Shown here: in pieces, positions 4,895 to 54,305 of the stretch
Layout of the letters: every line of letters begins with the position of its first letter
How positions within the stretch are numbered: position 1 is the stretch's first letter
NCBI GenBank assembly: GCA_963731735.1
Contig: CAVSWO010000001.1
Coordinates: forward strand, 64,761 to 128,760
DNA length: 64,000 nucleotides
Direction: 5' to 3'
Source of the DNA: Candidatus Kerfeldbacteria bacterium
GTDB taxonomy: Bacteria > Patescibacteriota > Patescibacteriia > SBBC01 > CAIJZX01
The notes under the pieces: model-generated
The model's input: the letters and a program-made list of their open reading frames with translations, nothing else
What the model was told of the DNA's origin: nothing
Databases searched by the model: none
Position numbers and translations under genes: made by a program

Positions 4895-6806
4895 AATGAA
4901 CGCGGCTTTCGATCTCTTCGGTAATCCAAAAACGCAAACCACCAATCTGGACCAACAACCGGATCTGCTTGACAGTGATCCGCGGTCCTCAATCAGGACT
5001 GAACAGAGTTTATCGACCGTCACCCAAAAACCTTGGTGGCGCTGGGTGTTTATCGGTATGACAGCGGTGGTGGTGCTGGTGGTAGGACGCTTAGTCCAGT
5101 TACAAACGGTTGAAGGCGCCACCTTGCGGGGTCGAGCGGAATACAACCGGTTGCGGATCCAATATTTAGCCGCGCCGCGGGGTTCAATCCTTGACCGGAA
5201 CGGGCAAACCCTGGCCACGAATGTGCCGAATTTCGCTTTGACCGTTGTGCCGAGCGATGTTCCGAGTACTGACGAGGCGTATCAAGCCTGGTTGAAAAAA
5301 CTTCAGCAGTTGATGCAATGGGACGACGCCAAACTGGCTGATGTCAAATCCAAAATCAAGGCCGGCGGAACGGATCCGGTGGTCATGCATGATCATTTAG
5401 GTTATGACCAAGCCTTGCCGTTGATGGTCCAAACAGCTGAACTACCCGGGGTGGCCATTCAATCGCTGCCGACGCGCCAATACCCGTTGGGACCGGCGGC
5501 CTCATCGGTGCTGGGCTATACGGGGATTGTCAATCAAACTGATCTCGACAGCCGTCAAAATTTGCACCCGCAGGATCGGGTCGGAAAAGCCGGATTAGAA
5601 CTGACCTACGACACCACCTTGTTTGGGACGCCGGGACGTCGGGAAATAGAGCGCGATGTCCGGAATCAGCGGATGGAAGTCCTGCACGAGCAAAATCCAA
5701 AACCCGGCCAATCATTACAACTCAGTATTGACGCCGGTTTACAGCAAGTTATGTACGATTCCTTGGCTCAAGCCGTCAAACAAGCCCACGGAACCGGTGG
5801 CGCCGCGGTGGCCATTAATCCGCAAACTGGCGCGGTTCTCGGGATGACCAGTTACCCCAGCTACGATGACAACTGGTTTGTGAATGGATCGTCAAACGAT
5901 CAGATCAGCCAGGTATTGCAAGATCCAGCCAACCCGCTCCTGGACCGGGCGATTGCCGGTGAATATCCGTCGGGTTCGATTATCAAGCCGTTGATTGCAT
6001 CCGCCGCCTTAGCCGAGAAGATAGTGACGCCGAATACCACCGTGCTGAGTACCGGCGGTATCACCATCGGTCATGACACGTTCCCGGACTGGAAAGCTGG
6101 GGGTCATGGAATCACGAATCTTTCCAAAGCGATTGCCGATTCCGTCAATACGTATTTTTATACCGTCGGTGGGGGATACAAAGATCAGCCGGGACTCGGG
6201 GTAGACCGGATTGTCAGCTATTTAGAAAAATTTAACTGGGGTTCACCACTGCAAATTGATCTGCCTGGCGAACGCGGCGGATTTTTACCCACCAAGCAAT
6301 GGCGAGAACAACAACGTCCTTCGCCCTGGCGACTGGGTGATACCTATCACTTGTCAATCGGACAAGGCGATTTATCCATTACCCCTCTTCAAGCGGTGAT
6401 GGGCATTGCGACGGTGGCGAACGGTGGAACCGTCTATCAGCCGCATGTGGTTCAGGCCGTCCTGAATCCAGATGGATCGGTAGCTAAAACGATTGCACCA
6501 AACGTCTTAGAAAAGGTAAATATTTCCCAGCAGGATTTCGCGGCTGTTCGAGCCGGATTGCGTCAGGGAGTAACGGACGGCAGTTCACGCGCATTACAGT
6601 CCTTACCGGTTACCTCCGGCGCAAAAACGGGAACCGCCCAATTTGGCAATCAAGGTAAAACCCATGCCTGGCACGTTGCTTTTGCGCCTTTTGATGACCC
6701 CCAAATCGCGATCGCCGTCATCATTGAAGCCGGCGGTGAAGGCAATGTGACAGCCTTACCGGTAACCAAAGCCGCTTTGAATTGGTATTTCAAGCCTACC
6801 CCCTAG
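4878..6806 (+). CDS. mrdA: penicillin-binding protein 2 (peptidoglycan D,D-transpeptidase)
   Basis: N-terminal transmembrane helix and dimerisation domain, an S-I-I-K (SxxK) active-site motif, and a KTGT motif. Located in the mreBCD operon. Confidence 0.88.
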   Translation: MINHSKMNAAFDLFGNPKTQTTNLDQQPDLLDSDPRSSIRTEQSLSTVTQKPWWRWVFIGMTAVVVLVVGRLVQLQTVEGATLRGRAEYNRLRIQYLAAPRGSILDRNGQTLATNVPNFALTVVPSDVPSTDEAYQAWLKKLQQLMQWDDAKLADVKSKIKAGGTDPVVMHDHLGYDQALPLMVQTAELPGVAIQSLPTRQYPLGPAASSVLGYTGIVNQTDLDSRQNLHPQDRVGKAGLELTYDTTLFGTPGRREIERDVRNQRMEVLHEQNPKPGQSLQLSIDAGLQQVMYDSLAQAVKQAHGTGGAAVAINPQTGAVLGMTSYPSYDDNWFVNGSSNDQISQVLQDPANPLLDRAIAGEYPSGSIIKPLIASAALAEKIVTPNTTVLSTGGITIGHDTFPDWKAGGHGITNLSKAIADSVNTYFYTVGGGYKDQPGLGVDRIVSYLEKFNWGSPLQIDLPGERGGFLPTKQWREQQRPSPWRLGDTYHLSIGQGDLSITPLQAVMGIATVANGGTVYQPHVVQAVLNPDGSVAKTIAPNVLEKVNISQQDFAAVRAGLRQGVTDGSSRALQSLPVTSGAKTGTAQFGNQGKTHAWHVAFAPFDDPQIAIAVIIEAGGEGNVTALPVTKAALNWYFKPTP

Positions 6807-7404: not shown

Positions 7405-8862
7405 ATGCCAAAGTCTGATCAAGAACAGATTCGCGCCCAACGGCGCCAGGATTTACTGGCAGCCCAGGTTGAACTTTATCCGGCCCGAACGCAGCGGTCC
7501 ACCCAAATTGAGCCCTTACGTACAGCATGGCAAGACGGTCAGACGCAAACCATCGCCGGCCGAGTCCGGGCCATCCGAATTCAAGGCGGTTCGGCCTTTA
7601 TCCGTCTCGAGGACGAAACGGGTCAGTTGCAAGTTTTTTTTCAAAAGAAAGAGTTAGCCGACTTTGCTCAGCTGGTCGAGAACCTCGACTTGGGTGATTT
7701 TCTCGAAGTCACTGGCAAAACTTTTATTACCAAACGGGGTGAACAAACGATCGACGCCACCCGTGTCCGGTGGTTAGCCAAGGCACTGCGGCCTCTGCCA
7801 TCAGCATGGCACGGCCTGGCTGATATCGAAACTCGCTACCGGTATCGCGAACTCGATTTACTTTCCAATCAAGCGGTTCGTAACATCTTTACGATTCGCG
7901 GAACCATCTTAACGACCATTCGTAATTTTTTAGTGAGCCGCGGGTTCCTTGAAGTCGAAACGCCGATATTGCATCCGATCGCCGGTGGCGCTACCGCCCA
8001 ACCTTTTGTGACGCATCACCAGGCACTGGATATTGATTTGTATCTGCGGGTCGCTCCGGAATTATATTTGAAGCGGCTCATTGTTGGGGGATTAGGCCGG
8101 GTGTTTGAAATCGGCCGGAATTTTAGAAACGAAGGGATCGATCGTGATCACAACCCTGAATTTACCATGATGGAATGTTATGCGGCTTTTACCGATTACA
8201 CCTGGATGATGGAATTGACGGAAGATTTATTCCTTGAAGTGGCACAAGCGGTGAATGGCAAACCGGAAATCTTGATCGGCGATCGAGTCATAAAACTTAA
8301 AAAACCATTTCAAAGGATTTCTTATCGTCAGGCCATTCAACATATGACCAAGATTGATATTGATAGCCTGGATGATACCCAACTCCGCAATCAAGGTCGC
8401 CAGGCGGGTACTGATCTGCCCGACACCATGAGCCGTCCAAAAATGATTGATGAGATTTTTAAAACGCATGTTCGACCAAATTTTATCGAACCCGGATTTG
8501 TCGTCGATTACCCGATTGAACTCTCACCGTTGGCCAAGAAAAAAGCCGACGATCCAAAGTATACGGAACGCTTTCAATTGCTGGCGGGCGGCACGGAACT
8601 CGGGAACGCTTTTAGCGAGTTAAATGATCCGGTTGATCAACAGCAGCGTTTCGCCGATCAGGAAAAACTTCGGACCCAGGGCGATAACGAAGCTCAGCGG
8701 GTTGATGCGGCCTACATCAAATCGTTGGAATATGGATTACCGCCAACCGGCGGATTAGGCATCGGAATCGATCGATTGACCGCTTTACTGACCAACCAAA
8801 AGAACTTGAAAGACGTGCTCTTGTTTCCAACCCTTAAACCGGAAAGTGATGACCAGGGATGA
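7405..8862 (+). CDS. lysS: lysyl-tRNA synthetase, class II
   Basis: FRNEGIDRDHNPEFTMMECY (motif 2) and a C-terminal GGLGIGIDRL (motif 3). Start chosen at MPKSDQEQ; the longer ORF from 7369 would add an implausible hydrophobic N-terminus. Confidence 0.88.
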   Translation: MPKSDQEQIRAQRRQDLLAAQVELYPARTQRSTQIEPLRTAWQDGQTQTIAGRVRAIRIQGGSAFIRLEDETGQLQVFFQKKELADFAQLVENLDLGDFLEVTGKTFITKRGEQTIDATRVRWLAKALRPLPSAWHGLADIETRYRYRELDLLSNQAVRNIFTIRGTILTTIRNFLVSRGFLEVETPILHPIAGGATAQPFVTHHQALDIDLYLRVAPELYLKRLIVGGLGRVFEIGRNFRNEGIDRDHNPEFTMMECYAAFTDYTWMMELTEDLFLEVAQAVNGKPEILIGDRVIKLKKPFQRISYRQAIQHMTKIDIDSLDDTQLRNQGRQAGTDLPDTMSRPKMIDEIFKTHVRPNFIEPGFVVDYPIELSPLAKKKADDPKYTERFQLLAGGTELGNAFSELNDPVDQQQRFADQEKLRTQGDNEAQRVDAAYIKSLEYGLPPTGGLGIGIDRLTALLTNQKNLKDVLLFPTLKPESDDQG

Positions 8863-9400: not shown

Positions 9401-10626
9401 TCGACCAGCAGACCTTGGAAGGACTACGCCGACGGGGCCGACGTTTTACCGAACTATTAGGCCGAGCGGAACAAGCAGCCGGCTCGACCGATCAAAAGAA
9501 ACTGCGGCAAAAAATTGAACAATTTCAAGCCCAGATAAATCAAGCCAATAAAATCATCCCAAGCCTTTCGCCGGCTGACAAAAAGAAAAAGATCGCGGCT
9601 GTAAAACCCATTTCAGCCAAGATCGCGGAACTCAAAAAGCAGCTCCAGGCATCTGCGATCCTGCGTTTACCGAACCCGCCGGCGACCGATGTTCCGAATG
9701 GCGATGACGATACGGAAAATGTGGTTGAAAAAGAAGTCGGTCAAAAACCGAAAATTGCCGATCCCAAGGAGTATTTAGCGCTGACCGAAAATTTAGGCGT
9801 GATTGACGTCCAACGCGCAGCCAAGGTTTCCGGTTCCCGTTTTGGGTACGTACTCGGGGACCTAGCTGAAATGGAATTCGGCTTGGTCCAATACGCGCAA
9901 GCAGTGATTCTGAAACACGGTTTTACTATGGTGGTTCCACCGGTCATGATTAAGGAAGAAAACATGGCGGCCATGGGTTACCTGGCCGGAGGAGGGGAGA
10001 GCGAGACCTATCATTTTGCCAAGGACCATCTGTATTTGGTTGGCACGTCGGAACAATCGATTGGACCCATGCATCGTGATGAACTATTTTCCGAACCGGA
10101 TCTACCGAAACGCTATCTGGCATTTTCAACCTGTTTTCGGCGCGAAGCGGGGAGTTATGGAAAAGACACCAAGGGGATTTTACGAGTGCATCAATTTGAT
10201 AAGCTTGAAATGTTTTCCCTGACGCTTCCTGAAGATTCCGATCAGGAACATCACCGCCTGTTAAGGTTGCAGGAAGAACTGATGCAAGGCCTTGGCTTGC
10301 CGTACCGGGTAGTCAAACTTTGTACCGGAGATCTGGGCTGGCCAAGTGCTCGGACCTATGACATTGAAACTTGGATGCCGGGCCAAGGGGTCTATCGGGA
10401 AACCCATTCAACGTCAACCACCACCGATTATCAATCACGGGCCCTAAACATTCGAGTCCAACGAGCCGATGGGAGTAAACAGTACGTGCATATGTTGAAT
10501 GGCACGGCGATAGCGGTTGGCCGGATGCTGATAGCCATCGTTGAGAATTATCAACGGTCCGACGGACGGATTGATGTGCCGAAAGTCTTGCAGCGCTGGA
10601 TGCGGACTAAACGAATCGGCAAGTAA
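9397..10626 (+). CDS. serS: seryl-tRNA synthetase
   Basis: N-terminal coiled-coil arm and class II motifs (FSTCFRREAGSYGKDTKGILRVHQFDKLEMF). Confidence 0.9.
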   Translation: MIDQQTLEGLRRRGRRFTELLGRAEQAAGSTDQKKLRQKIEQFQAQINQANKIIPSLSPADKKKKIAAVKPISAKIAELKKQLQASAILRLPNPPATDVPNGDDDTENVVEKEVGQKPKIADPKEYLALTENLGVIDVQRAAKVSGSRFGYVLGDLAEMEFGLVQYAQAVILKHGFTMVVPPVMIKEENMAAMGYLAGGGESETYHFAKDHLYLVGTSEQSIGPMHRDELFSEPDLPKRYLAFSTCFRREAGSYGKDTKGILRVHQFDKLEMFSLTLPEDSDQEHHRLLRLQEELMQGLGLPYRVVKLCTGDLGWPSARTYDIETWMPGQGVYRETHSTSTTTDYQSRALNIRVQRADGSKQYVHMLNGTAIAVGRMLIAIVENYQRSDGRIDVPKVLQRWMRTKRIGK

Positions 10627-41732: not shown

Positions 41733-43333
41733 GGATTGGCTGGTTTACTGCCGCGCCGGAGTTTTGCGAGTAAGCGATCAACTCCGTGCCGTATCAAATA
41801 GGCTTCATCTAAACGAAATAACGTGGCAAAAATGGTATAGCTCAAAACGCCGACGATCCCGGCGCCAACCGCTTGGGCCAGTACGCCAATCGCCCGCGAC
41901 AAATCGAGGCCGAAACTGACAAAGAATATTTTTGAGCCTTGCACCGCCACCGCCATCAAGATGGAGACACCGATAATTTTGAGTGTCGATTGGATTATCC
42001 GATCATCATCCAGCGAACCTAGCCGCCGATGGAGCGTCCAGGTTAATAAACCCGCGTTCACCACGCTGGAAATAGTATAGGCCACCGCCAAACCTTGAAC
42101 ACCCATAATTGGACTCAGTAAGACCGAGCCGGTAATCGCCAGGGCTACGGCAATCACGGTGTATTTGACCGGCGTCTTGGTGTCCTGCATCGCGTAGAAT
42201 GAGCGGGCCAGAACCGGAATCAACGACTGGGCAAAAAATGAGAGGGCAAAAAATCCCAAGGTTTGGGCGGTCGCGATGGTCTCCGCCCAGGTGACTTGAC
42301 CGGCGCCGATAATTACTCGAACGAATTGCGCGCGTAACTGCAGAAATAAGACCGTCAGCGGAATGATAATAAACAGAATCTGTCGGACAATCTGGGAAAA
42401 ATGTTGAATAAATTCCTTCCGTCGATTCTGTCCGAGCAGTTCGACAAAGACCGGAAACGCCACCGTCGCGATTGAAACACCGACGATACTAATCGGCACG
42501 TCCTGAATGTCATTCGCCCAGCGAAAAACCGAGAGATTCGATGGACCGAGACGGGTGGCGATCGGAATCGTGGCGAGTTGATTCAATTGGGTCACCGACT
42601 GTCCGATCGTGCGAGGTACCACGAGTTTTCCAATTTGCCGGACCCCTGGGTGCCGATACCCGGCACTTGGTCCGAACCGCCATCCGATCCGCCACGCCGC
42701 GATAAAGTTCGAAGACACGTGTAAGAAAGCTCCCACCACCGCTCCCCAGGCCACGCCGGCTTCACCCAGAAATGGCACCAACACAACAATCCCGAAAATT
42801 ATGCCTAGATTATTCAGCATCGGCGCCAGCGAAACCGCTAAGAAGTGGCGGAACGACTGTAAGACGCCGGCAAACACGTTGCTCATCGCGAACAACAGCA
42901 TGTTCATCGAAAGGATGCGGGTCAGCAGGATGGCGGTGTGCTGGGAATCCGCACCGAATTCACGCCCGACCAATAATTTCACAATCGGTCCGGCTCCGAA
43001 TAGCAGCGTGATTCCCAAAATGGTAAATAGCCAGACCAAAACATTCAAAATCGAACGAGAAATCCGCCAAGCCTCGTCCGGGTTTTTTTGCCGGTAAGCA
43101 ATAAAAACCGGCATAAAGGCCGTCAGCAATGAACCTAAAATCAGCGTCCCGTACAGGAAATCCGGAATCGCAAAAGCAGCGTAGATAGGATCCGCTCCCT
43201 CGGCCCCAAAGGTTGAAGCAATCAGGCGCTGGCGGATTAACCCCAGCCCCTTACTGATTATCCAACTCGATCCGACTAAGACCGCTCCTCCGACAATAGT
43301 GGTCTGGAGCTTCAGAAATATTTTCCGCCACAT
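41729..43333 (-). CDS. murJ: lipid II flippase MurJ (MviN)
   Basis: 534 aa with about 14 transmembrane helices and a MurJ-like N-terminus (LIRQRLIASTFGAEGADPIYAAFAIPDFLY). Confidence 0.85.
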   Translation of the reverse strand: MWRKIFLKLQTTIVGGAVLVGSSWIISKGLGLIRQRLIASTFGAEGADPIYAAFAIPDFLYGTLILGSLLTAFMPVFIAYRQKNPDEAWRISRSILNVLVWLFTILGITLLFGAGPIVKLLVGREFGADSQHTAILLTRILSMNMLLFAMSNVFAGVLQSFRHFLAVSLAPMLNNLGIIFGIVVLVPFLGEAGVAWGAVVGAFLHVSSNFIAAWRIGWRFGPSAGYRHPGVRQIGKLVVPRTIGQSVTQLNQLATIPIATRLGPSNLSVFRWANDIQDVPISIVGVSIATVAFPVFVELLGQNRRKEFIQHFSQIVRQILFIIIPLTVLFLQLRAQFVRVIIGAGQVTWAETIATAQTLGFFALSFFAQSLIPVLARSFYAMQDTKTPVKYTVIAVALAITGSVLLSPIMGVQGLAVAYTISSVVNAGLLTWTLHRRLGSLDDDRIIQSTLKIIGVSILMAVAVQGSKIFFVSFGLDLSRAIGVLAQAVGAGIVGVLSYTIFATLFRLDEAYLIRHGVDRLLAKLRRGSKPANP

Positions 43334-43554
43334 AGGTGTGGGCCGACTCTACCATTTTTTTTGCCTTTTCGCAACTCCAAATCCGGCCGAATCAGGAGCG
43401 GTCCCACGCTGCGGTATCAAACGGAGGAGACGTTTGGTCCTTCAGTGTTGGGACATCGCTGATTCGGCCAGATCTGGGCAGCCCGTTTGGTTGTGCTGTA
43501 AAAAAGTGTATGCCCTTCTCACCAATCCGCCAAATTTGACGACCAGGTGAGAAG

Positions 43555-43581
43555 GGAGAGCACTCAAAACGAGTGCTCTCC
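43555..43581. terminator. perfect 11-bp stem hairpin GGAGAGCACTC-aaaac-GAGTGCTCTCC, nested inside a second inverted repeat (cccttctcacc…ggtgagaaggg)
   Basis: Lies just 3' of the minus-strand small-gene cluster (stop at 43597). No U-run follows on either strand, so it is not a canonical intrinsic terminator. Confidence 0.35.
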
Positions 43582-43596
43582 ACGAAATGACCAATG

Positions 43597-43827
43597 TTAC
43601 CGTAAGGCTTGCCGGGCATCGTAGTGCGGCTGCCGCTCGAGCAGGACCGTAACCGGGCTGGCGGTCGGATCCGGAATGAAGTCGTTGAGTTCATCCAGTT
43701 CCGAAACCGTCAATCGAGCATACAGCACTTGCTGGAGTCGGAGCTTGTCCCGGAAAACGGAGACCACGGCCAGGCTGAGCACGATCACCATACCCAGCAA
43801 CATCCAGGTACTCCAGATCCAAATCAT
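43597..43827 (-). CDS. hypothetical small membrane-anchored protein (76 aa)
   Basis: GGAGGG about 4 nt upstream of the ATG. The ATG overlaps the upstream ORF's TGA (ATGA). N-terminal transmembrane helix MIWIWSTWMLLGMVIVLSLAVV. Confidence 0.5.
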   Translation of the reverse strand: MIWIWSTWMLLGMVIVLSLAVVSVFRDKLRLQQVLYARLTVSELDELNDFIPDPTASPVTVLLERQPHYDARQALR

Positions 43828-44041
43828 GGTCCCTCCATTGGGAACAGCAGTTGGGTACCGGCCAAAACCGTCAAACGTTCATCGTCGGACAGAAAGATGC
43901 AGGCTTCGACCGGACAGCGGTAAGACCGCCGCCGGTGCCAGGGCTCCAGTCGCTGCGTAACGCAGTGGGAGCCGGCCGGAATTGGCCGTTTGCACAGCCA
44001 ACAGACACAGCGCCGGGGGGCAATGACGGCCTCAGGCACGC
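43824..44041 (-). CDS. hypothetical Cys-rich (zinc-ribbon-like) small protein
   Basis: CVCWLCK…HC…CPVEAC. Frame open from just after the upstream TAG. No ATG, so a GTG near 44041 is possible, or an ATG at 44084 that would overlap the upstream gene. Confidence 0.35.
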
Positions 44042-44043
44042 GA

Positions 44044-44466
44044 CTACACGCACCACCCCTCGAACCAATCGACGATCTCGTCATCGAAGTCCTCGAATGC
44101 GTTCTGGAGATCCTCCGACTCATCCGCTCGGTCGTAGTCATCTGCCGTCATCTCCACTCGCGGATCGACCGCGAAATAGACTTCATTGAGCAGCCGCTGA
44201 TGCTCAGCATCCAGCCATTCCTGGATCTGTTCCGCCAAGCTCAGCTTGGACAGGGAGTCGATCTTTCGACGACGACTCATCCGTTCCTGGCGATCATCGA
44301 AATGCCGACGCCGCCAGCCGGTCGGGTGCAGCTGACGCTTGGCCAGTTGCGGTTGTCCATGGCGAACTTTCGCATCCACCGGGTGACATGAGATGACCGG
44401 AACAATCAGCGTCCAGAGTGGTTCAACACTGACCCGATCTTCCTTGGATGAATTGAGTCCTTGCAT
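44044..44466 (-). CDS. hypothetical protein with strongly acidic C-terminus (140 aa)
   Basis: AGGAGGGG lies 5 nt upstream of the ATG. C-terminus MTADDYDRADESEDLQNAFEDFDDEIVDWFEGWCV. Confidence 0.5.
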   Translation of the reverse strand: MQGLNSSKEDRVSVEPLWTLIVPVISCHPVDAKVRHGQPQLAKRQLHPTGWRRRHFDDRQERMSRRRKIDSLSKLSLAEQIQEWLDAEHQRLLNEVYFAVDPRVEMTADDYDRADESEDLQNAFEDFDDEIVDWFEGWCV

Positions 44467-44692
44467 CACATCCCCTCCTGGGTTGGTGATTGGTCAATTT
44501 TTGACAAGGTGCTTCCTCTCATGAGCGCCCGATGTGGAGGAACATCAGACGCTCGTGAGAGTGGGAGGACGAATTGTCGGAATTCGCCCTCCCTGGTTGT
44601 TGGTAGAAAGAACGTTAGGTAAACGGCTTCACGCGCATCACCACCTTTCTCCGCCCCGGAATCAGTCCGATGGGCGTGTGGAATTCGGTCGG

Positions 44693-45181
44693 CTAGGCCG
44701 CCCGCTGACGCTGCTTCCGCTGCCGCCGGTCCTGCTCCTTCGGCTTGGATGCCGACGACTGCTCGTCCTTGACCGGATAACGGCGACGCTTGCGCCGCTT
44801 GCCGCTGCGATGCTTCTCGGGACCGATGTAGATCGGCGTCGATACCATCCGTTCGGTCGGAACCGTCTGCTCAACTACTGTTTCGGACCGCAACCAAAGT
44901 TCATGGGCGTGGTCGTGCAGTTTGTCCCGCTCCTCCTCGATCCGGATCGACAGTCCCCGGATATCGATGTAGAGCTGGTTGATCCGATCCGTGGCCCAGG
45001 CAATACACCTGGTTTCGTAGACCGTAGGTTTGGGACCGCAGGACTGTACCCGGTTCGTGAGATTCATGATCTCGAACTCGCAGTCGGAACGCCGGCTGGT
45101 CAACTTCTCCAAGCATCGGACCGCCTTCTGCAGTCCGTCTTCATGAAACTGGATAGACAGGGGTGTGAAGACCGCGTTCAT
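44693..45181 (-). CDS. hypothetical protein with 4 Cys and an extremely basic C-terminal tail (162 aa)
   Basis: AGGAGG lies 6 nt upstream of the ATG. Tail …HRSGKRRKRRRYPVKDEQSSASKPKEQDRRQRKQRQRAA. Confidence 0.55.
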   Translation of the reverse strand: MNAVFTPLSIQFHEDGLQKAVRCLEKLTSRRSDCEFEIMNLTNRVQSCGPKPTVYETRCIAWATDRINQLYIDIRGLSIRIEEERDKLHDHAHELWLRSETVVEQTVPTERMVSTPIYIGPEKHRSGKRRKRRRYPVKDEQSSASKPKEQDRRQRKQRQRAA

Positions 45182-45279
45182 GGCAACCCTCCTGGTTGAG
45201 GTAGTCAACAGTTTTGAAAGATCTCCTCCCTTGAGCATTCCATCGTGAGCGGCTCACGCCATGCTTGATGAAATGCTCG

Positions 45280-45317
45280 AGGGAGGGTCAGGAGATGCGC
45301 GCAGTGCGTGCATCTCC
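45280..45317. promoter_or_regulatory. 13-bp perfect inverted repeat GGTCAGGAGATGC-(11 nt)-GCATCTCCTGACC
   Basis: In the intergenic gap between the stop of the 58-aa basic gene and the start of the 162-aa gene. Confidence 0.35.
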
Positions 45318-45330
45318 TGACCGGGGTACA

Positions 45331-45507
45331 TCACGGGCGACCGAAGAGCCGCTTCCAGAACGGCCGCCGACGCTGCTTGCGCCGCTTGGCCGGACGAACA
45401 CGATCTCCGCTGGTCCTGACGCGTTTCAGCTGCCGACGCTGCTTGGTGCTGGACAGCCAGCCCTTGGGATCAAGCGCCAATTGCAGATCTTTGAAAAATC
45501 CGGTCAT
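45331..45507 (-). CDS. hypothetical small protein with basic tail (58 aa)
   Basis: GGGGGA lies 5 nt upstream of the ATG. Sequence MTGFFKDLQLALDPKGWLSSTKQRRQLKRVRTSGDRVRPAKRRKQRRRPFWKRLFGRP. Confidence 0.5.
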   Translation of the reverse strand: MTGFFKDLQLALDPKGWLSSTKQRRQLKRVRTSGDRVRPAKRRKQRRRPFWKRLFGRP

Positions 45508-45700
45508 TGAATCCCCCGTCGTGCTAGGCACGGTAGAAGATGACATCGTGCAGCGAGACTCCCATTCCCTCACGAGCCATGGCCAACACATTCTTCGCGC
45601 GATTCGGTCCCATCCTGTACCTCCATGCGCTTGAGGTGTGAACGATGCTTCCCTGAGGCCAACCACATGTTGGCTGGAAGCGTTTGATGCTTCGCCTGCT

Positions 45701-46099
45701 TTACAGCTTCGGCCATGGGGTAAAACACCACAGCAGGAACAGAACGCCGATCGCCTTGGCCAACCCGGTTACCACCATGCGAACTTTGGTGTTCGCCTGA
45801 TCCAGGTCATACGCAAAAGATGAGTATTCTCCCTGCATGGTCTGGTTAACCTGGGTGGAAATCTGGCGCAATGATTGCAAGGTGTTGCCACAGTGTGTAG
45901 CCATTGAAAGGCCGATCAGTAGACCAAAAATCGCGAGTGCTCGGCCCATCCAAAGTTGATGGACGATGTGATTCACGATCCAGGCCGACCCAATCATCAA
46001 CATCGAGAAGATGAAGAGAACTGTGAAGGTGATCAATTCTTGCCGAAAGACTCGATATTGCGTCAGCAACGACCGAATAAAGATCTCCTTGGGATACAT
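45701..46099 (-). CDS. hypothetical 3-transmembrane membrane protein (133 aa)
   Basis: AAGGGG lies 6 nt upstream of the ATG, and hydrophobic helices are present. The conserved leader motif lies upstream. Confidence 0.5.
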   Translation of the reverse strand: MYPKEIFIRSLLTQYRVFRQELITFTVLFIFSMLMIGSAWIVNHIVHQLWMGRALAIFGLLIGLSMATHCGNTLQSLRQISTQVNQTMQGEYSSFAYDLDQANTKVRMVVTGLAKAIGVLFLLWCFTPWPKL

Positions 46100-46226
46100 G
46101 GTCAACCCCTTGTCAAGGTATACGGATTGAAAGGTTCAAATCTCTCTTGAGTATCCGATGTGGAGGAACATCAGATACTCGAGGGAAGCGGGGTTTTGAG
46201 AAGACCTCGCCAACCCCTTGGATTGC

Positions 46227-46457
46227 TCAGGCAGATTGCCGGTGACTTTGCTGTTCCAACCAGATGCGATTGTGGGAGCGGATAACCTCACGGATATCCT
46301 CACCCATCAAGTCACAGGCTGCCCGGAGCATCCGCACATCGGTGGTTTCGCCGTTCGTGAAATTGACGATGATGTGGTAAGCCTCGGTAACTTCGGATAC
46401 CGGCTGCGAAGCCTGATCCGAATTGATGCCAAACAGCATCTGCATGAAGCGCCACAT
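46227..46457 (-). CDS. hypothetical small protein (77 aa)
   Basis: AAGGAA lies 7 nt upstream of the ATG. Sequence MWRFMQMLFGINSDQ…. The upstream ORF-track extension has no start context. Confidence 0.45.
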   Translation of the reverse strand: MWRFMQMLFGINSDQASQPVSEVTEAYHIIVNFTNGETTDVRMLRAACDLMGEDIREVIRSHNRIWLEQQSHRQSA

Positions 46458-47305
46458 GGAATATTCCTTTCCGGGCGGCAAGGGGTATGATTGATGCAAG
46501 GAACACAGCAGGAGGCGAGCGAGACGCGATTTTGCCGAACCGAGGTCAGACGTATCGCGTGATGTCCGTGTGCCGAGGCTTTGAGAGTTAGACCCTCGTA
46601 GCCTGAAGCTCAGGACGGCCGGAATCAATCCATGCTTGAAAGCAAATTGACCGCCGGTGCTCTCCCCTCCTTGTGCATTCCGTGAAGGCAGGAAGTAAAG
46701 TTGTAAGATGCTCTCGGAACAACACGATGGCTTTGATCATCCGTCGATTCCTCCGATGGTAGGCAAGTAGAATGAACGTGGAATTTCGGAACATATCGGG
46801 AGGCAAGCGTACCGCGTTTATTCGCCCGAAGGTGAATGTCGCGGTGATGTTGACGCGGTCTGGCTTTGGAAGTCGAGACCTCCGAGGCTAGGCAACGAAA
46901 ACGGCTGGAATGGATCCATGCTTGTAGCGAATCCAGAACCAGTGCTCTCCCCTCCCCGTATGTTCCCCCGTCGCGGATACAACCGTGACCGACGGGGACT
47001 TCAATCCATAGGTTCCTGCGACTCAAGACACGCGGCCCGAAGCCGCAGAACCAACGGATTGAAATGAAAACAGGTGTGGTAGTTGAGGACAATGTCGACA
47101 ACACACCACACCCGTTTGCTTGGATATGAGAATATGTTTCGAACAACGTCTCCTCAACGCGTTCTTCCGAATAATTGTAGGGTGCGCTCGAAGCTGTCTC
47201 CTCTTCAGTTCTCAAGCGTAACGAAGCAGCATACAGCAGCCCTTTCAATATGTCAAGAGGGCGCTGGCGCTACCCTGTGCTATTTTGGCTAATCTTAGCT
47301 TAATT

Positions 47306-53659: not shown

Positions 53660-54305
53660 GCCCGGCTTCAGACCACCGATAAGCCGAATTCTGTCAACCT
53701 CCGCCGGAGGCTACGGTTGACAAGTTCCCTTTCCGGGGATGCTTGCCGGCCGAAGTCTCCGACGCAGGCCGGATGATCATCTCTCTTGGACGGACATTGC
53801 TGCCCGCCTCATGCGATCTACCCGCCCCGCACACCGAGCTGGTGTGGGAGCCTATGCGATCTTGCACCGGAGAGGGTTTACCCGTCCCGATAGTCACCTA
53901 TCGGGACCGTGGGCTCTTACTTTACCCGCCGAAGCGAGGTATCCCTCACGATGGAGGGCCCACGATTTCACCCTTACTTGAGTCTTGCCCTTGGGTTGGC
54001 ATCTCAGCTGTGACTGCCGGTCAGAGACCCGCAGACTGGCCAGTGTGATGCTCCAAGGTGAAGTGCCTGAATAATTCAGACGAAGCAATTCCCGAGCGGT
54101 ATGTTTCTGTTGCACTAATCCCTAGGCTTGGCCCCCACGCCAATACACACGCGCCGGTGTGCATTGGTGTGGGGGTTACTCCCGGTTGCCGTTAGCAACT
54201 CTCCTTGACCCTGCATGTCTGCAGGAGGTGTTCGGACTTTCCTCCCACCGAAACGCACTTGCGTGCACACCGGCGGGCGATCATCTGGTGGTCTGAAAAG
54301 GGCTG
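53660..54305 (-). ncRNA. rnpB: RNase P RNA, bacterial type A, with large insertions (about 645 nt)
   Basis: Minus-strand matches to universally conserved M1 RNA blocks: GGAAAGUCCGAACACC (P4 5'), GUGCAACAGAAACAUACCGC, CAAGUAAGGGUGAAA, GUAAAGUAAGAGCCCACGG, GGGUAAACCCUCUCCGGUGCAAG, ACAGAAUUCGGCUUAUCGGUGGUCUG (P4 3'/P1). P1 pairs CAGACCACC with GGUGGUCUG. Ends are approximate. Confidence 0.75.

Follow-up and report, generated by a model that had tools for sequence, protein, structure and literature searches.

A family of covarying hairpins, possibly RNA processing signals, in a hypervariable small-gene island beside murJ in Kerfeldbacteria-like Patescibacteria

RNase III hairpins lie between the cistrons of the early and late mRNAs of phage T7 and also within bacterial operons. 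Other short intergenic elements are the promoter early stem-loop (PeSL) cassettes of T4-type phages, which include a sigma-70 early promoter, and the start-associated sequence (SAS) of cluster K mycobacteriophages, which is placed 3–8 nt from the start codon. Clustered hammerheads that cleave in vitro flank single genes of inconstant identity in the polycistronic RNAs of prophages (PMC3088659). Gene-expression signals of the Candidate Phyla Radiation, whose members cannot be grown alone and whose genomes are rich in small orphan genes, are almost unknown. Here a repeated hairpin, termed H2, is described from a 64,000-nt stretch of the Candidatus Kerfeldbacteria contig CAVSWO010000001.1 (the window, to which all positions refer unless a relative is named), where three copies lie in an island of 4 kb (~43300–47300) made up of small minus-strand open reading frames (ORFs), as listed in Table 1.

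An earlier note on this DNA had reported a duplicated motif upstream of two island genes, and the exact-match counts bear this out. The 21-mer CCGATGTGGAGGAACATCAGA occurs at exactly two plus-strand sites, 44529–44549 and 46155–46175 (the latter about 2 nt away from the position first given), with no other match at three or fewer mismatches and an expectation of 0 in 100 shuffles, and the similarity extends over 45 nt (44516–44560 against 46142–46186, 82% identity). The second shared block of that note, ACCTTGWCAA-N3–4-TTGACCA, is real and unique to the minus strand at 44491–44510 and 46099–46119 (0 expected), its formula having been approximate in that the length of the internal gap differs between the copies (3 and 4 nt); related CUUUCAA...UCAACC blocks also stand 3' of other family members. 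The shuffle expectation of 0 for both 21-mer and block rules out a chance duplication. The position ahead of two start codons is retained, with the distances corrected from 57–64 nt to 62 nt (ATG at 44466) and 55 nt (ATG at 46099) from the motif end on the coding (minus) strand; the 140-residue acidic protein is as described, and the membrane protein has 132 residues, not 133. The tiny plus-strand ORF noted within the motif is present as ATG...TGA, yet its start is not conserved in related copies, L003a having GTG in place of the ATG of the peptide MWRNIRRS and L170:5908 lacking a start codon, and this peptide was rejected. The 21-mer was absent from the genome and metagenome contigs in an exact search, and a single 19-mer viral match (L001), inside a coding region and in unrelated context, was attributed to chance.

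On the coding strand the 21-mer is the apex of an imperfect hairpin of ~46 nt, H2, which reads CUCUCACGAGCGUCUGAUGU-UCCUCC-ACAUCGGGCGCUCAUGAGAG in copy 1 and UUCCCUCGAGUAUCUGAUGU-UCCUCC-ACAUCGGAUACUCAAGAGAG in copy 2, and the bases flanking the 21-mer differ between the two copies in a compensatory manner (GAGCG...CGCUC against GAGUA...UACUC). The minimum free energy (MFE) fold of copy 1 is a 20-bp stem with one C·A mismatch. A third, diverged copy, first found by a regular-expression scan, is located at 45226–45285 with the same base as the others (CCUCCCUCGAG...CUCAAGGGAGG) and a different interior. Every H2 of the window is preceded on its 5' side by a second hairpin, H1, and the joint fold of H1 and H2 is much more stable than those of shuffled sequences, with z values of −9.4 for copy 1 and −8.8 for copy 3.

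The same hairpin recurs in the islands of related genomes. The first copies were obtained by a scan for hairpins with CCUCC loops, followed by regular-expression scans, giving 20 copies in seven genomes, from which the covariance model R1 was built, and their base consensus is 5' CYCN-CUCGAG ... YUCAAG-NGAG 3'. Used as a regular expression, the exact core matched 8 times within the islands and not once in 1.95 Mb of murJ loci of other lineages. With R1, only three copies were detected in the 64-kb window, all within the island and on the minus strand, 24 copies in seven relatives, and 44 more in nine islands outside the training set, where all of them are on the same strand as murJ and within the stretch from the DUF4012 gene to murJ. 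This brings the family to ~70 copies from 17 genomes, all lying in that one hypervariable island. A search among relatives, which the earlier note had proposed as a check, therefore yielded further copies, between or ahead of island genes. The remaining ~60 kb of the window contained no R1 copies, nor did the flanking sequences of the 16 relatives, and the 1.95 Mb of other lineages gave 0 matches at E ≤ 0.01. All three window copies score higher on the minus strand: copy 3 is the best match overall (41.8 bits), copy 1 reaches 39.4 bits on the minus strand only, and copy 2 reaches 37.7 bits against 18.7 on the plus strand. The family matches no Rfam entry; it is previously undescribed and represents a new RNA family for databases. 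A viral link was rejected, the core pattern finding seven viral loci, none of which exceeds 15.3 bits with R1, as was restriction-site avoidance or targeting of CTCGAG, with 13 sites in the window against 9.3 expected.

The two arms of the hairpin have evolved together. In the first set, whose copies had been selected partly for pairing and whose arms were joined by an artificial GAAA loop, 92% of the aligned arm cells are paired and double-sided changes occur in 16 of 17 pairs, a result that 0 of 500 shuffles equalled and that no slid-alignment control of this set approached. In an independent set, the top 16 of the 44 copies outside the training set, 94% of cells are paired and the covariation is above 500 of 500 shuffles. 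The core itself varies in a paired manner (CUCGAC/GUCAAG, CUCGAA/UUCAAG, CCCGGG/CCCAGG), and its C·A mismatch is kept in 17 of the 20 curated copies, the core C being unpaired in nearly all MFE folds. The covariance check suggested in the earlier note thus returned a strongly covarying stem, above all shuffles. The stems are 17–22 bp long with one mismatch, and the interior, of 4–87 nt, falls into classes: class A, with the loop YCCUCCA, includes copies 1 and 2 and about eight others; class B, carrying UCAAGCAUGG, includes window copy 3, L003d, L005b, L085, L170 and L171; and further interior types are genome-specific. The class A homologue in L003, GAGCGUCUCGUGU-CCCUCC-ACACGGGGCGCUC, differs from the window in two compensated pairs of the apical stem (GAU/AUC to CGU/ACG) while the loop YCCUCCA is kept.

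As the interior ranges from 4 to 87 nt with pairing kept, a binding site in duplex DNA is excluded, and a folded strand fits the data. Regarding the strand, nearly all copies are co-oriented with the island genes, the match at L083 1330–1377 being ambiguous (24.2 bits minus, 20.7 plus), and the positions outside the core include 36 G·U pairs, which only the coding-strand RNA allows, against 12 A·C pairs. Three observations weigh the other way: the outer stem has A·C and G·U at about the same frequency, the folding energy is about equal for both strands, and the conserved C·A would become a G·U if the antisense strand were the RNA. Because of the last two, orientation, G·U bias and context are the basis of the strand call. 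Compensatory change across genomes together with the kept mismatch implies selection, and the family is very probably a selected, strand-specific RNA structure. A functionless selfish or neutral palindromic repeat, similar to repetitive extragenic palindromes or miniature inverted-repeat transposable elements, or else a duplicated promoter or operator, would account for short imperfect intergenic palindromes that are alike within a genome, but this is very improbable, as the copies, within the window and the flanking stretches covered, are confined to one syntenic island in 17 genomes and share one orientation, selection is implied by the compensatory evolution around a kept mismatch, and promoter hexamers are missing at the copies.

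The family copies are intergenic, with a start codon 31–66 nt downstream in general; some copies stand ahead of a non-coding domain or of another copy instead of a start codon. In L176, seven of ten intergenic gaps contain a copy. H1, a GC-rich hairpin of arbitrary sequence, follows the upstream stop codon directly, and its end is at most 6 nt (mostly 0–2 nt) from H2 in 23 of 27 copies. An upstream ORF after the GAGG of the 3' arm, which resembles a Shine-Dalgarno (SD) sequence, was rejected, the start codons differing between copies. A sigma-70-like promoter is located at the island head, where it is the sole coding-strand site of the window island, and head promoters likewise occur in L003 (5077–5105) and, as a strong site, in L084 (3421–3449). 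The only further plus-strand sigma-70-like site in L003 is the murJ promoter, and L084 contains further weak sites (9–10/12) on the plus strand of its island at 5579–5606, 7442–7469 and 9770–9799. No sigma-70-like −35/−10 pair with 16–18 nt spacing was detected at any copy in the three scanned islands (window, L003 and L084), which, with the varying interior, leaves the promoter/operator proposal of the earlier note unsupported. The TTGACA-like hexamers of the downstream block were considered as a promoter and rejected, there being no −10 at the right distance and the implied start falling inside an ORF. Intrinsic termination was likewise rejected for the hairpins, since no U tract follows H1 or H2 (downstream of H2 comes the purine-rich GAGGAAAG, downstream of H1 the 5' arm of H2), and the terminator scan reported none at the copies.

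Canonical U-tract terminators are used in the same lineage, in the leader of the island, where a terminator-like hairpin follows the head promoter. The leader as a whole (47067–47256, minus) combines promoter, the conserved CACCCUACAAUU...CGUUGAGGAGCG and terminator hairpin, is also present in L003, L004, L005 and L084, and is either a small RNA of ~150 nt or an attenuator- or riboswitch-like leader of the island. A requirement to overcome this terminator is one of the points in favour of H2 as the binding site of an RNA-binding regulator, namely an Arg-rich island protein or an antiterminator similar to lambda N/boxB, which would let RNA polymerase or ribosomes pass H1. The conserved base with its specific mismatch and the apical loops also resemble protein recognition features, and Arg-rich proteins are encoded in the island (a 58-residue protein at 45331–45507 and the tail of the 162-residue protein). 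This explanation is nevertheless improbable: the island proteins are not conserved between genomes and the hairpin base is, H1 has no U tract and is no obvious terminator, and no known antitermination RNA or protein was detected in the Pfam and Rfam searches.

Downstream of the leader, the islands contain a structured non-coding domain of ~180 nt, of which 17 copies were found in 13 genomes, with 26 of 48 predicted pairs compensated and no Rfam match. Besides the two copies in the window, it occurs in L003 (5464–5643 and 8586–8779), L004 (5632–5814), L005 (6716–6892), L084 (3931–4150) and others. It is closed by a helix, GGGAGG/CCUCCC, and contains a hairpin whose loop is CAAGCAUGG, another that resembles a T arm (GGUUUCGACUCC) and a fourth hairpin; the three occurrences of CAAGCAUGG in the window are all in the island, two of them in loops of this domain. 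The domain is often flanked by H2 hairpins, and in L005 it is bracketed on both sides.

In L004 the place of the hairpin ahead of this domain is taken by a ribozyme. A type III hammerhead with complete core is located at 5562–5616 on the plus (coding) strand (43.2 bits, E 3.5e-7), with a GUC cleavage site, CUGAUGA, a GAAA-capped helix II and CGAAAC. Its end lies 16 nt ahead of the ~180-nt domain, and the end of H2 lies 18 nt ahead of the same domain in L005, 17 nt in L175, 21 nt in L084 and 46 nt in L173; directly downstream, CCTTACA(A)CG is common to L004 and L005. The presence, in the slot of the hairpin, of a ribozyme whose sole action is RNA self-cutting suggests that the RNA is cleaved at the hairpin as well, and clues of this kind have led to new ribozyme classes before. 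The window hairpins themselves were rejected as hammerheads, as they contain CUGAUGU without A9, GAAA or a three-way junction; a hammerhead candidate at 47137–47208 was discarded for its poor core and its lack of conservation in L003; and Rfam gave no match to the hammerhead RF00008 or its clan between 43200 and 47400 at E ≤ 5. A bolder reading, that H1–H2 is a ribozyme-equivalent mark, either a new, very small motif that cleaves itself around its C·A or the dedicated target of an undescribed endoribonuclease specific for sequence and structure, and at the same time a joint for the exchange of orphan genes and ~180-nt RNAs, is quite improbable.

Taking these observations together, H2 is tentatively read as a cis-acting RNA processing or stability element, a form of punctuation between cistrons and in 5' untranslated regions (UTRs), specific to this clade and to its hypervariable operon; this reading may be correct, at somewhat less than an even chance. 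It draws on the position between genes, the abutting H1, the lack of promoter and terminator, the interchange with a hammerhead and the prophage precedent. Among the functions proposed in the earlier note, the RNA options, riboregulator and processing site, gain support from the strand-specific covarying stem-loop, the probable single transcription unit and the hammerhead that replaces the hairpin in one relative, and the promoter/operator option does not. The island would be transcribed as a long RNA from the single strong head promoter, and the conserved H2 base with its C·A would be recognised and cut by an endoribonuclease, probably a double-strand- or structure-specific enzyme of the host such as RNase III, which a helix of about 20 bp makes the obvious choice; H2 presents about two helical turns of double-stranded RNA between cistrons, which is the structural requirement of an RNase III site. 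Cutting would yield single-gene mRNAs and release the ~180-nt domain; H1 would shield the new 3' end of the upstream piece, and the downstream mRNA would begin with the remnant of H2 and the purine-rich, SD-like GAGGAAAG. The apical loops (YCCUCCA in copies 1 and 2, CAAGCAUGG in copy 3) probably form a second, sequence-specific contact, and the anti-SD-like YCCUCCA and the self-complementary CAUG of CAAGCAUGG may add translational control or loop-loop contacts.

Several observations weigh against this processing role. The window contains three copies for about eight genes, so that gaps without a copy exist; the leader terminator means that co-transcription of the island would require read-through or unrecognised promoters; and the hammerhead falls below the Rfam gathering threshold (43.2 against 48.5 bits). 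The swap is moreover a single event, no further ribozyme being found in the islands of the 17 genomes, and no hammerhead occurs in L174, L178 and L179, the close relatives of L004, the segment having been lost in L174. If the hairpins are processing sites, they offer a testable handle on how single-gene mRNAs arise from a long transcript.

The class A loops admit a different function, that of a translational riboregulator, in which the loop UUCCUCCA or the CCUC-rich 5' arm would pair with a GGAGG ribosome-binding site, either that of the next gene or one on another mRNA, and so control translation in the way of the C-rich loops of some small RNAs. The loop YCCUCCA is indeed kept in about ten copies from eight genomes while the stem covaries, the gene after copy 1 has the SD sequence AGGAGGGG, the loop CCCUCCA of one L003 copy could pair in full with UGGAGGG, which lies within the copy that follows it, and a weak Rfam match (E 0.15) links the hairpin to ar14, a family of small RNAs with CCUCCUCCC. 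Most members (classes B, C and others), however, lack the apical CCUCC and share the same base, the gene of copy 2 has only a weak AAGGGG as SD sequence, some copies precede a non-coding domain or a hairpin in place of a start codon, and neither the C·A core nor H1 is explained, so that riboregulation is unlikely, although it keeps a real chance.

The island itself differs strongly between genomes. It is flanked by a DUF4012 gene and glycosyltransferases on one side and by murJ-lepA on the other, and MurJ is 76% identical to that of a Kerfeldbacteria metagenome-assembled genome and 57–67% to others, which places the organism among the Candidatus Kerfeldbacteria-like Patescibacteria. In the relatives the flanks are syntenic and 45–76% identical, and the island proteins are nearly unrelated, or faintly similar and shuffled; those of the window gave no match in Pfam, PHROG or PADLOC. 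Nucleotide conservation within the island is that of its non-coding parts, namely the head promoter with leader, the ~180-nt domain, the region 5' of murJ and the hairpins. Between the same envelope genes, RNA signals are thus under visible selection while the proteins are nearly all turned over.

Such turnover would also be expected if the hairpins were recombination joints of gene cassettes, acting either as DNA-level homology patches (PeSL-like) or as folded single-strand sites (attC-like). Small genes that are homologous between islands may or may not have a copy before them, and their order has changed; the zinc-ribbon ORF at 43824–44033 matches the ORF after L084 copy e, and a homologue of g1 stands after L003 copy d; copies resemble each other more within a genome than between genomes (the window 21-mer; L084 b, c and e); and the conserved outer part, variable centre, single promoter and co-oriented promoterless ORFs recall a cassette array. 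On the other hand, no recombinase lies beside the island, neither an intI tyrosine recombinase nor attI being found among the Pfam-annotated neighbours (GT4 glycosyltransferases, DUF4012, MurJ and LepA) within ~8–10 kb on each side in the window and nine relatives. The attC core sites RYYYAAC/GTTRRRY are absent, the conserved H2 ends of the 20 aligned copies being CUCGAG/YUCAAG; the G·U excess and the co-orientation point to RNA; and the RNA-only hammerhead fills the same slot. A recombination function is therefore rather unlikely, and it is compatible with an RNA role rather than exclusive of it.

Table 1. Positions of hairpins, associated signals and genes of the island within the window.
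Feature	Coordinates	Strand	Description	Context or evidence
H2 copy 1	44516..44561	minus	class A, apical loop UUCCUCCA	5' UTR of 140-aa gene
H1 copy 1	44563..44593	minus	GC-rich, unconserved, GGGAGGGCGAAUU...AAUUCGUCCUCCC	dG −22, 1 nt from H2
Downstream block copy 1	44491..44510	minus	ACCTTGTCAAAAATTGACCA	between H2 and Shine-Dalgarno
H2 copy 2	46142..46187	minus	class A, 21-mer at 46155–46175	5' UTR of 132-aa gene
H1 copy 2	46190..46217	minus	weaker, GGGGUU...AACCCC	dG −13.9, no better than shuffles
Downstream block copy 2	46099..46119	minus	ACCTTGACAAGGGGTTGACCA	extends into ATG
H2 copy 3	45226..45285	minus	class B, interior UCAAGCAUGG and small inner hairpin	upstream of 162-aa gene
H1 copy 3	45286..45322	minus	18-nt arms, 94% complementary	dG −30, gap 0 to H2
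Sigma-70-like promoter	47228..47256	minus	TTGACA-17-TATGCT	island head, sole coding-strand site in window island
Terminator-like hairpin with U tract	47067..47115	minus		~110–155 nt 3' of promoter, five-genome consensus fold
~180-nt domain copy 1	46788..46968	minus	P1 GGGAGG/CCUCCC, loop CAAGCAUGG	nhmmer E 6e-48
~180-nt domain copy 2	46496..46683	minus		nhmmer and consensus structure
140-aa acidic orphan gene	44044..44466	minus	SD AGGAGGGG	downstream of copy 1
162-aa orphan gene	44693..45181	minus	Arg-rich C-terminus	downstream of copy 3
132-aa membrane orphan gene	45701..46099	minus	weak AAGGGG SD	downstream of copy 2
Hairpin before murJ	43555..43581	minus	GGAGAGCACUC-GUUUU-GAGUGCUCUCC	island end, before murJ promoter region

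Further features were observed in and around the island. Two of its proteins carry Arg/Lys-rich tails, KRRKQRRRPFWKR and RRQRKQRQRAA (45331–45507 and 44693–44760, minus), which are encoded by a 25-nt direct repeat of 84% identity (44699–44723 and 45361–45385) and represent candidate RNA-binding peptides. A Cys-rich, zinc-ribbon-like ORF (CxxC...CPxxxC) at 43824–44033 on the minus strand overlaps the end of the 140-aa gene and has a homologue in L084 (8141–8356, E 9e-9) directly after a hairpin copy, few island ORFs having homologues. Just upstream of the murJ promoter lies an inverted repeat, I1 (43345–43477), with 47-nt arms that are 70% complementary; I1 and the adjacent sequence are 77–85% identical in L003–L006, and this region may be the regulatory region of murJ or the terminal structure of the island. 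A near-perfect 59-nt palindrome, TTCTCGAGAGCC...GGCTCTCGAGAG, which is unrelated to the H2 family, is located ~500 nt upstream of murJ in several Desulfobacterales (L066 9455–9513, L068 7430–7488, L126, L128 and L129). Elsewhere in the window, positions 53664–54296 (minus) match the bacterial class A RNase P RNA over 633 nt against a model of 367 positions, so that the gene carries large insertions, and between 60001 and 64000 the G+C content rises from ~0.52–0.55 to 0.64–0.70 with overlapping ORFs on both strands, for which foreign DNA, an unusual gene or an assembly join are possible explanations.

In comparison with described elements, H2 lacks the defining features of a hammerhead, of cuckoo/ar14 RNAs, of attC, of a sigma-70 promoter or PeSL and of an intrinsic terminator. 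The Cuckoo/alpha-r14/CcsR small RNAs (RF02344, RF02791; PMC4615179) share with it the tandem hairpins and a C/U-rich, anti-SD-like loop; they differ in carrying CCUCCUCCC loops, where H2 has only UUCCUCCA (CCUCC) and most members lack the motif, and in that H2 is embedded in an operon and is not a stand-alone small RNA. Membership was rejected, since the CCUCCUCCC loops are absent and the gathering scores are missed (ar14 at 44520–44620 minus, 23.9 bits against 58.8; CcsR1, 16 against 65.3). Like integron attC sites, H2 is an imperfect inverted repeat, conserved in its outer part and variable in the length of its centre, and lies between small, co-oriented ORFs that have no promoters of their own and stand behind a single strong one; unlike attC, it shows neither R''/R' core sites nor the extrahelical-base pattern, and the evidence points to RNA. 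The PeSL and the SAS with its extended form (ESAS) resemble H2 as short conserved elements before many unrelated small genes in a hyperplastic region, with a possible double role in expression and gene shuffling, but no sigma-70 promoter accompanies the H2 copies, the distance to the start codon is 31–66 nt, and the host is here a chromosome region without phage protein matches (PHROG).

Closer likenesses are found among RNA processing systems. As in the RNase III sites of T7 and of bacterial operons, recurrent imperfect intercistronic stem-loops of ~20 bp carry an irregularity at a conserved place, and the 3' hairpin that cutting leaves there stabilises the upstream mRNA, a function proposed here for H1; the consensus is different, and H2 has a single C·A mismatch in place of an internal loop. 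The clustered hammerheads of prophages (Perreault et al. 2011, PMC3088659) are the nearest counterpart in function. They differ in their core, H2 being a simple stem with one C·A mismatch that, having no hammerhead core, probably needs a protein nuclease; both are repeated structured RNAs between co-oriented small genes of inconstant identity, and the prophage elements presumably divide a long transcript into mRNAs the length of a gene, as is suggested here for H2.

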